This document shows positions 15,324-15,457 of a stretch of DNA of 64,000 nt, piece after piece. The position numbers were made by a program, and so were the translations under genes. Under the pieces are notes generated by a model. The model was not told where the DNA came from, did no database searches, and was given only the letters and a program-made list of their open reading frames with translations. The DNA comes from Patescibacteria group bacterium (GTDB lineage: Bacteria > Patescibacteriota > Patescibacteriia > XYB2-FULL-38-15). Position 1 is the stretch's first letter. Each line of letters starts with the position of its first letter. The stretch is from NCBI GenBank assembly GCA_041653675.1, contig JBAZEY010000001.1, positions 98 through 64,097 of the forward strand, given 5' to 3'.

Positions 15324-15457
15324 ATGCCCCGTAGTGAAACTTCGGCAGTTCTATTTTTAGCAAAGATTAAAGAAAAGTATGTAATTGCCCAAGATTTTTC
15401 CACGGAGCGTAATTAGATAAAATTAAATAATAAGCAGAAGTTCTGCTACGGGGTATG
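15324..15457 (+). promoter_or_regulatory. Structured 5' leader element, copy A (~134 nt), starting ATGCCCCGTAGTGAAA and ending CTACGGGGTATG, the ATG being the start of the S8 protease gene
   Basis: Terminal inverted segments pair as CCCCGUAG + AACUUC / GAAGUU + CUACGGGG. A second copy lies at 53292-53429 with compensatory substitutions in the stem. Confidence 0.55.

Follow-up and report, generated by a model that had tools for sequence, protein, structure and literature searches.

Covarying "leader" elements before two genes of a Patescibacteria contig are miniature inverted-repeat mobile elements that share their ends with small GIY-YIG nuclease-encoding elements

What is a strongly folded stretch of about 130 nucleotides doing directly before the start codons of two unrelated genes? 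The question is raised by a 64,000-nucleotide DNA of a Patescibacteria group bacterium (GenBank assembly GCA_041653675.1, contig JBAZEY010000001.1, positions 98 to 64,097 of the forward strand; hereafter the window, numbered from its first letter), which carries two copies of such an element, A and B. A reading made from the letters of the window alone (the sequence-only reading) left two answers side by side: a functional RNA, such as a riboswitch or translational regulator, or a pair of terminal inverted repeats (TIRs) like those of a miniature inverted-repeat transposable element (MITE). The second answer holds: the feature is mobile DNA of the MITE type, and no RNA regulator. The best explanation as a whole, in which we place high confidence, is that A and B are non-autonomous members of a family whose full-length forms encode a small GIY-YIG nuclease, which may well mobilize them by way of a stem of single-strand DNA.

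Copy A reads TATG + CCCCGTAGTGAAACTTCGGC...GCAGAAGTTCTGCTACGGGG + TATG (15323-15457, + strand), the element proper being the 127 bp between the two tetranucleotides (15327-15453). It comprises a left TIR of 20 bp (CCCCGTAGTGAAACTTCGGC, the "GTGAAA" end; 15327..15346), a non-coding interior of 87 bp (15347..15433), and a right TIR of 20 bp (GCAGAAGTTCTGCTACGGGG; 15434..15453), which is the "GTAGAA"-type end and has two additional mismatches. The same 4-mer stands on both flanks (15323..15326 and 15454..15457), preceded on the left by tggtataatctttaaa and followed on the right by gctaag, and the ATG of the right-hand TATG (15455-15457) is the start codon of a gene for a 739-aa Peptidase_S8/FG-GAP protein (the S8 protease gene). 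Copy B, also on the + strand, reads TATG + CCCCGTAGTGAAATTTCGAC...GTCGAAATTCTACTACGGGG + TATG (53291-53429; element 53295-53425, 131 bp), with 20-bp TIRs at 53295..53314 (CCCCGTAGTGAAATTTCGAC) and 53406..53425 (GTCGAAATTCTACTACGGGG) and a 91-bp interior (53315..53405) that contains two local hairpins (GGCGCCTTTCGGCGC, CCGAGCAACTGACTCGG). Its left TATG (53291..53294) lies 2 nt past the stop codon of a NUDIX gene, and its right TATG (53426..53429, followed by tttgga) contains the start codon (ATG at 53427) of a gene for a 167-aa Sm_multidrug_ex (PF06695) protein. The ends assigned to both copies by the sequence-only reading, with the last ATG as the downstream start codon, agree with the sequence and the coordinates, as does the placing of copy A before an S8 protease; the gene behind copy B, which it described as that of a COG2426 membrane protein, is the Sm_multidrug_ex gene. 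No third copy was found in the window, where A and B are the sole copies.

The genome-wide search for further copies that had been proposed was carried out with the pattern CCCCGTAGTGAAA-N(90-120)-CTACGGGG over 185,579 species genomes. It yields 79 stretches, of which 77 are true elements (111-141 bp) and two (in a Caldarchaeum and a Microcoleus) are chance matches inside open reading frames (ORFs). The 77 elements are hosted by metagenome-assembled genomes (MAGs) of Patescibacteria (Uhr-, Buchanan-, Portnoy-, Andersen- and Taylorbacteria, Parcubacteria/Paceibacterota, and others), with up to five copies per MAG among the fetched loci, at unrelated positions; the window has two, and its nearest named relatives are Candidatus Falkowbacteria (proteins 87-92% identical). 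One 886-kb chromosome with four of the loci (OZ246416.1; L026, L042, L088, L091) is titled "uncultured Gammaproteobacteria bacterium"; it shares gene order with the window, its proteins are 79-89% identical, and the title is probably a taxonomic mislabel. Of the 20 bp of the TIR, 13 are conserved (as CCCCGTAGTGAAA in one arm and CCCCGTAGTAGAA in the opposite arm), and the 7 others vary but match between the ends. There are variant families (CCAGGTAG, CCGGGTAG, CCCAGTAG, CCCCGTAGAGAAA/...GAAGAA) in which both ends are altered together and the GA/AG swap between them is retained, and interiors are unrelated between subfamilies. Full-text literature searches with coverage of few subscription journals turned up no description of the element, of MITEs in the candidate phyla radiation (CPR), or of bacterial GIY-YIG elements with TIRs and target-site duplications (TSDs). 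This is apparently an undescribed MITE family, widespread and multi-copy in Patescibacteria.

The flanks and the relatives identify the element as mobile. Perfect 4-nt direct repeats flank 56 of 81 pattern matches, where about 0.3 would be expected, and most of the remaining matches have a 3- or 5-nt repeat or one mismatch. Because these repeats are direct and not inverted (e.g., TCAA/TCAA, CAAG/CAAG, TTGA/TTGA), they are TSDs and not an extension of the helix formed by the ends. Empty sites in relatives, the check suggested for the MITE alternative, exist for both copies. For copy B, locus L083 reads ...aaaattgtaaaaTATGttcggaataaattacgc / ...gttaaaattgtaaaaTATGttcggaataaattacgc, which is the window minus the element and minus one TATG; L083 and L084-L087 keep the gene order M50-Translin-NUDIX-Sm_multidrug_ex-MurD without copy B, the NUDIX gene abutting the ATG, and same-strain contigs (identical flanking proteins) all have copy B. 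The empty site for copy A is that of L090, whose S8 protease is 87% identical; the sequence there is tggtataattctaaaaTATGgctaagaaa / tggtataattctaaaaTATGgctaagaaattaaac, with a single TATG. This TATG is thus empty in L090, occupied by the 127-bp MITE in the window, and occupied in L089 by a 283-bp GIY-YIG element with other TIRs (CCCCGTTAGAAGCC; ~715-1000), which indicates that it is a recurrent insertion hot spot. Nested or tandem/abutting copies occur at L013, L025, L032, L046, L051 and L074, and no copy was found to interrupt a protein ORF. The window feature is therefore non-coding and bounded by TIRs, is flanked by TSDs, has empty sites, is found at multiple loci and in nested arrangement, falls into target classes (described below), and has a coding form with identical ends.

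Several individual loci merit description beside these results. Orthologous genes of different MAGs carry an element with a diverged interior at the start codon (L029/L044, ParA-like; L032/L040, MKNL[VA]KNF...), either as an old insertion kept through speciation or through repeated insertion at the same site. In three loci (L044, L058 and L077), a GTG start codon is restored by the final G of the element. At L014 (764-888), an element of the CCCCGTAGTGAAA type, with TSD CAAG, has a complete tRNA-Gly(CCC) as its interior and lies inside the anticodon arm of another tRNA-Gly(CCC); the outer tRNA is intact by ARAGORN after removal of the element and one TSD, so that the element destroys a tRNA gene and brings a replacement. 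A notion of RNA-level introns or splicing, which arose from this element, was set aside, there being no copy inside a protein ORF. In the window, a tRNA-Gly(CCC) gene (61574-61644, within 61558-61661, - strand) is enclosed by inverted repeats of 15-16 bp (CCCCCACACCAAATTC / GATTTGGTGTGGGGG) and lies inside an apparent decayed 5' half of another tRNA (GCGCGGGATTAGTATAGTGGCAG...CGACCTTCC); ARAGORN recovered no outer tRNA at 61558-61661 after trial excisions.

The insertions are directed to two kinds of site. In 38 copies, the TSD (TATG, CATG, AATG, CGTG, or one of these shifted by one base) lies at a start codon, and for about 30 of these copies the TSD contains the beginning of a long ORF. A TAnnnT hexamer ends 5-9 nt upstream in 18 of the 35 scored start-codon copies (10% at control TATG sites) and a Shine-Dalgarno-like 4-mer is present in 2 of the 35, from which it follows that the target genes are largely leaderless or without Shine-Dalgarno sequence. 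Roughly one copy in three is found upstream of a promoter, at the -35 box; here the TSD is TTGA, sometimes CTTG, TTTG or TTG, and represents the first four bases of the -35 hexamer. Among the 19 copies with a perfect TTGA duplication, 17 read TTGAC (control 17.5%) and 16 have TAnnnT at a spacing of 16-18 nt (control 5.8%). Nearly all TSDs fit YNNR. Insertions four bases further upstream, which would be equally harmless, were not seen; selection alone is therefore insufficient, and the target is recognized. Both arm orientations occur in both target classes (23 vs. 15 at start codons).

At A and B, TATG is the base preceding the start codon together with the host start codon, one ATG having come to lie upstream and the other having stayed on the gene. 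It is because the TSD is TATG that the element seems to begin with ATG and, as had been observed correctly, ends 0 nt from the start codon. The extended -10 box TGGTATAAT (15307..15315, +), which the sequence-only reading gave as the promoter of copy A, belongs to the host: it lies outside the element and is kept in L090, 8 nt upstream of the ATG, which makes the S8 protease gene leaderless or nearly so. A consensus scan upstream of this gene found no -35 partner for TGGTATAAT. At copy B, the apparent "-10" is the 3' end of the NUDIX coding sequence. The gene starts of the window (e.g., 5145, 13354, 17700, 47684) have no Shine-Dalgarno sequence, an AT-rich upstream region (...aaatt ATG) and, in most, a T before the ATG, and several genes have a -10 box 6-8 nt from the ATG; the host seems to rely on leaderless or Shine-Dalgarno-independent initiation.

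The long closing helix proposed for both copies is borne out by folding. With the 5' and 3' ends paired, copy A folds at -36.5 kcal/mol (z -3.5) and copy B at -59.1 kcal/mol (z -6.35), and in neither case do any of 200 shuffles equal this. The arm length of the family has a mode of 20 bp (most 19-23). In 54 distinct arm pairs of relatives, the pairs at positions 1-9, 12 and 13 are Watson-Crick and hardly vary, save for one U·G at position 9; part of this constancy is imposed by the search pattern. Position 10 is G·U in 54 of 54 and position 11 is A·C in 54 of 54; as DNA, one end is always ...GTGAAA and the other ...GTAGAA, and at the second end this is not imposed by the pattern. Positions 14-20 show two-sided changes in 26, 6, 3, 19, 13, 21 and 34 sequences, respectively, with pairing kept in at least 90%, and positions 14 and 20 show all four pair types; the compensatory difference between A and B (C-G to U-A), to which attention had been drawn, is real and lies at position 14. 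At positions 21-24, pairing is at chance level only. The covariation score is 0.275, compared with 0.095 for shuffles, none of 500 of which attains the observed value; displacing the partner by 1-3 columns gives no more than 0.068. End-to-end pairing is thus under selection, as the sequence-only reading had argued.

The selected substrate is more likely folded DNA than RNA. On the sense strand of start-codon copies, the wobble falls as G·U in three and as A·C in three, with no preference at the RNA level, and copies upstream of promoters retain the same helix. The maintenance of complementarity at positions that are free in sequence, together with the invariant G·T/A·C tandem mismatch, points to recognition of a folded hairpin of single-strand DNA. 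The interiors, which had been described as differing over about 90 nt, show no convincing alignment between A and B (87 and 91 nt).

The coding partners are full-length elements of approximately 284-305 bp that have the same TIRs, TSDs and targets and a single ORF, for a GIY-YIG nuclease of 85-86 aa. In L089, the closest relative of the window (S8 protease 92% identical), an element of approximately 283 bp with 14-bp TIRs (CCCCGTTAGAAGCC) sits at the very TATG of copy A; its ORF encodes a GIY-YIG domain (Pfam E = 1.2e-15), the start being mutated to ATA. A metagenome scan for MITE ends 255-285 nt apart identified L102 and L103, two 305-bp elements with TIRs CCCCGTAGTGAAACTTCAAA / TTTGAAGTTCTACTACGGGG that have the 20-bp architecture and GA/AG asymmetry of the window copies; each has inserted at the start codon of a different host gene, with TSD TATG or ATG, and they encode an 85-aa GIY-YIG protein (Pfam E = 2.7e-14). 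Further full-length elements are found at L092 (TSD TAAA, at a stop codon), L125 (TSD TATG, between two response-regulator genes) and L115 (TSD TTGA), and L059 and L107 are older or variant copies. The ORF of the full-length elements takes up everything between the two TIRs, with its stop codon in or beside the right TIR, and it is co-directional with the host genes where this is clear (L089, L092, L102, L103, L125). The arm asymmetry is independent of ORF direction: the ORF starts at the GTGAAA end in L102/L103 and at the GTAGAA end in L059. Elements with these ends reach at most 305-318 bp, and those of this length code for GIY-YIG proteins.

The small GIY-YIG homologues number 447 (85-129 aa, most 85-105), and all those with a named source belong to a Patescibacteria/CPR lineage. 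In the CPR nucleases, PF01541 is the sole match above threshold (residues 1-71; E = 1e-15 and 3e-14), and where a gene call has an N-terminal extension, this is the translation of a TIR. The 86-aa forms start from an ATG of the element itself, 15-27 nt inside it; the possibility that the nuclease takes over the host ATG was rejected for the family with 14-bp TIRs, in which that frame stops at codon 4, and the frame is open only in L102/L103. Plasmids gave one weak and uninformative match by tblastn with the nuclease, and a profile scan of viral contigs gave eight relatives, one with TIRs of the CCCCGTAGGATTT type. The MITE interiors retain some resemblance to the coding forms: a 34-nt stretch of copy A is similar to the 5' coding part of the L089 element (z = 4.0; 2 of 500 shuffles as good), the local alignment of copy B with L092 spans 13 nt (z = 2.4), a TGCTATGTGGTAT stretch in copy B resembles the beginning of GIY-YIG ORFs, and the interior of copy B is homologous to that of L075. 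Two other small GIY-YIG genes were noted in passing. One (L092, 1000-1275; 91 aa, of another subfamily) has its own TIRs of 21-24 bp (TTTACCCGCCCAAATTTTTGGATT), adjoins the first GIY-YIG element and lies upstream of a diversity-generating retroelement (DGR) accessory gene (bAvd), which implies that several TIR families of such elements exist; the other (L110, ~480-900; viral contig IMGVR_UViG_3300035537_000177) has a copy of the 5' part of a tRNA gene (ttccccggtagctcagttggta...) on either side, a further case in which such nucleases are associated with tRNA genes.

With moderate confidence, we infer that the GIY-YIG protein is the mobilizing enzyme and that it reads the paired TIRs as a stem of single-strand DNA. 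By this mechanism, the protein would mobilize the full-length elements and, in trans, the MITEs; the two TIRs would pair with each other, and the resulting stem would be recognized with its invariant tandem G·T/A·C mismatch at positions 10-11, in a manner modelled on the Ssn-family GIY-YIG nucleases, which bind hairpins of single-strand DNA. The target would be opened with a stagger of about 4 nt at YNNR, the preferred sites being start codons (TATG) and the edge of the -35 box (TTGA). Complementarity at free positions, fixed stem length and a strand-asymmetric invariant mismatch all fit the reading of a single-strand stem. In coding copies, the host promoter and ATG may open a short or fused frame that leads into the nuclease, whose stop codon lies 6-21 nt before the duplicated ATG, so that host translation may be resumed by coupling.

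A number of points weigh against this proposal. The pattern fixed the outer 13 + 8 bases of the element, and the seeming perfect conservation of these bases is ascertainment. The link between MITEs and nuclease rests mainly on shared ends, TSDs and targets: the nucleotide similarity of the interiors to GIY-YIG elements is weak (z = 4.0 and 2.4, as given above), a GIY-YIG profile has no significant match in the six frames of the MITE interiors, and the 64-kb window contains no GIY-YIG gene or autonomous copy. The nearest solved structure to a CPR nuclease is the UPF0213 protein 1ZG2 (E = 2.9e-6), followed by SLX1. The orientation of copies relative to GC skew (40 vs. 26) is a weak bias, unlike that of strictly strand-specific single-strand transposons. 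GIY-YIG enzymes hydrolyse DNA and are not known to carry out strand transfer, and the proposal does not account for the creation of a 4-bp TSD by a hydrolytic nuclease, for host translation behind a hairpin of -36 to -59 kcal/mol without a Shine-Dalgarno sequence, or for the choice of -35 hexamers and start codons.

An additional role of the MITEs at the RNA level, in stability, processing (e.g., by RNase III) or translation, as for the Correia and ERIC elements, would be compatible with the nuclease-driven mobility proposed here, and we give it an appreciable, if minor, chance. Copies at start codons have to share a transcript with genes that are intact and apparently functional (ParA-like, SMC-like, FolD-like, S8 protease), and orthologous genes of different genomes have an element at the same place (L029/L044; L032/L040; window/L089). 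The stop codon of the nuclease lies 6 nt (L089, L125) or 21 nt (L102) before the duplicated host ATG, which suits translational coupling. Against such a role, the ORFs that begin at the duplicated ATG have scattered stop positions, between 118 nt upstream and 53 nt downstream of the host start, the wobble pairs have no strand bias, and copies at -35 boxes keep the same helix outside any 5' untranslated region (UTR). These short ORFs (8-60 aa) are conserved in neither length nor sequence, and in-frame read-through from an element ORF into a host gene was not seen; a supposed conserved leader peptide (MPRSE...) proved to be merely the translated TIR, with variable ends.

The MITEs might instead be moved by a conventional DDE transposase encoded elsewhere, of a kind that makes 4-bp TSDs (IS5, IS701, IS1380), the GIY-YIG protein being a passenger or a homing/addiction module; we regard this as unlikely. 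TIRs with a TSD of fixed length are the classical signature of DDE enzymes, strand-transfer activity is not known to us for GIY-YIG enzymes, and a YNNR target with a 4-nt stagger would suit a symmetric dimer. The IS5 group, IS701 and IS1380 have TIRs and 4-5-bp TSDs in the ISfinder family tables, and the ends of IS1380 begin with CC. However, no DDE transposase was found between the present ends, and the complete coding element (~300 bp) is several times smaller than any such insertion sequence (IS). Six independent full-length elements have an ORF that runs from TIR to TIR and leaves no room for a second gene, and in the 79 loci and the window (~0.6 Mb of host DNA) there is no long element with these TIRs, including DDE-type autonomous copies with the ends 500-3500 bp apart. 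Furthermore, complementarity at the free TIR positions (all four pair types at 14 and 20) would be unexpected if double-stranded ends were bound separately.

A cis-acting structured RNA in the 5' UTR (riboswitch, thermosensor or translational regulator), with the closing helix sequestering the start codon, is largely refuted and retains very little probability. In its favour, copy A is probably transcribed as a 5' UTR, the first ATG lying 8 nt downstream of the -10 box; folding is stable and exceeds that of shuffles, and the helix covaries. Rfam, both at the gathering threshold and at E = 10, gives nothing relevant at either copy and only four tRNAs in the window, and there is no conserved core, interiors differing both between the copies and between subfamilies. 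The arms stand before genes in both orientations, about a third of copies lie upstream of promoters, the sense-strand wobble is evenly split, the helix has a fixed length of 20 bp, and TSDs and empty sites are present. A comparison of downstream gene functions, which had been named as a check on an RNA regulator, shows the genes to be functionally unrelated.

It is equally improbable that the element is a REP/REPIN-type repeat moved by the RAYT-like Y1 transposase of the window (3777-4310): that gene does have flanking REP-like hairpins, and the TIR does contain GTAG, the tetranucleotide typical of REPs, but the hairpins are of other sequence (CCCCGACTAAAGTCGGGACTCC) and are local palindromes, as opposed to CCCCGTAG ends that form 20-bp repeats about 90 bp apart, REP/RAYT and IS200/IS605 systems make no TSD, and the coding relatives of the element carry GIY-YIG and not Y1. 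The locus itself (window 3690-4450; ORF 3777-4310, +; Pfam Y1_Tnp E = 2.7e-11) has seven flanking REP-like hairpins that end in or adjoin GGACTCC or GAACTCC (e.g., CCCCGACTAAAGTCGGGACTCC, CCTGTCTAAAGACAGGACTCC), and is a second, independent nuclease-plus-hairpin-repeat system in the same genome.

Among known systems, the Correia elements of Neisseria, ERIC/IRU of enterobacteria and RPE of Rickettsia resemble the present MITEs in size (100-150 bp), in TIRs that form a long hairpin, in TSDs and high copy number, and in being usually intergenic and co-transcribed with neighbours. They differ in that the TSD here is 4 bp (3-5) at YNNR and not TA, in the precise targeting here of start codons and the first four bases of -35 hexamers, and in the TIR of exactly 20 bp with its invariant G·T/A·C tandem mismatch; moreover, the coding partner here is a GIY-YIG nuclease and not a DDE transposase, and the hosts are Patescibacteria. 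REP/REPIN-RAYT and IS200/IS605 systems share with the present elements a small nuclease gene with dispersed hairpin-forming repeats, short tetranucleotide targets, and recognition of folded single-strand DNA in which stem imperfections give strand specificity. In these systems no TSD is made, the chemistry involves a covalent tyrosine link, and each end has a subterminal hairpin of its own, whereas the present elements have TIRs, TSDs and the hydrolytic GIY-YIG fold.

The closest likeness in protein and layout is to the Ssn nucleases, single-domain GIY-YIG proteins (about 94 aa) whose binding and cleavage are confined to single-strand DNA beside directional hairpin repeats (PMC11893778). Their hairpin repeats (NTS/SRM) flank the nuclease genes and are dispersed through the genome (Chenal et al., 2025, PMC11893778). 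The authors noted the IS-like layout and reported no TSDs, empty sites, MITE derivatives or mobility; they propose a domesticated role in transformation and do not mention Patescibacteria (PMC11893778). Both systems have a small single-domain GIY-YIG protein (85-94 aa) and a gene with inverted repeats on both sides, but the geometry differs: each SRM is a local hairpin (20-50 nt), and in the present elements it is the left and right TIRs that pair with one another. In both systems many copies of the repeats are scattered through the genome, seldom within genes, and the direction of the Ssn repeat matches the strand-asymmetric mismatch described here. The likeness is one of size and domain and, in part, of repeat layout, and the CPR proteins are at most candidate members of the Ssn clade (cd10448).

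The first consequence is the removal of a false structured-RNA candidate: what looks like a strongly covarying "leader" of about 130 nt is mobile DNA, and every structured-RNA screen of Patescibacteria genomes will meet this trap again. Gene callers, too, extend ORFs through the TIRs, giving proteins that begin MNPVRN..., MSPVRSQS... or MPRSE... if the duplicated ATG is used. For the hosts, the finding places a MITE family of unusual insertion precision in streamlined genomes that are usually thought to be poor in mobile DNA. The link from the MITEs to the ~300-bp GIY-YIG elements opens to direct test a suggestion of the Ssn paper, namely that small GIY-YIG genes flanked by repeats are, or once were, mobile elements, and the element pairs offer a large natural stock of enzyme/hairpin combinations such as are wanted for single-strand DNA tools. 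If the nuclease is the transposase, it would constitute a sixth catalytic class of prokaryotic transposases. We suggest tentatively, as a joint claim, that these elements are an active or recently active and unrecognized class of prokaryotic transposon, in which an ~85-aa GIY-YIG protein is the sole protein of an ~300-bp element, reads a single-strand DNA stem with a G·T/A·C mismatch, and lands on promoter landmarks (the start codon of leaderless genes or the edge of the -35 box), where the element would form its own upstream cistron from the host promoter and start codon and return translation to the host gene through the duplicated ATG, the Ssn/NTS system of Neisseria being a domesticated descendant. 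If this is true, the ~300-bp element would be the smallest autonomous DNA transposon.

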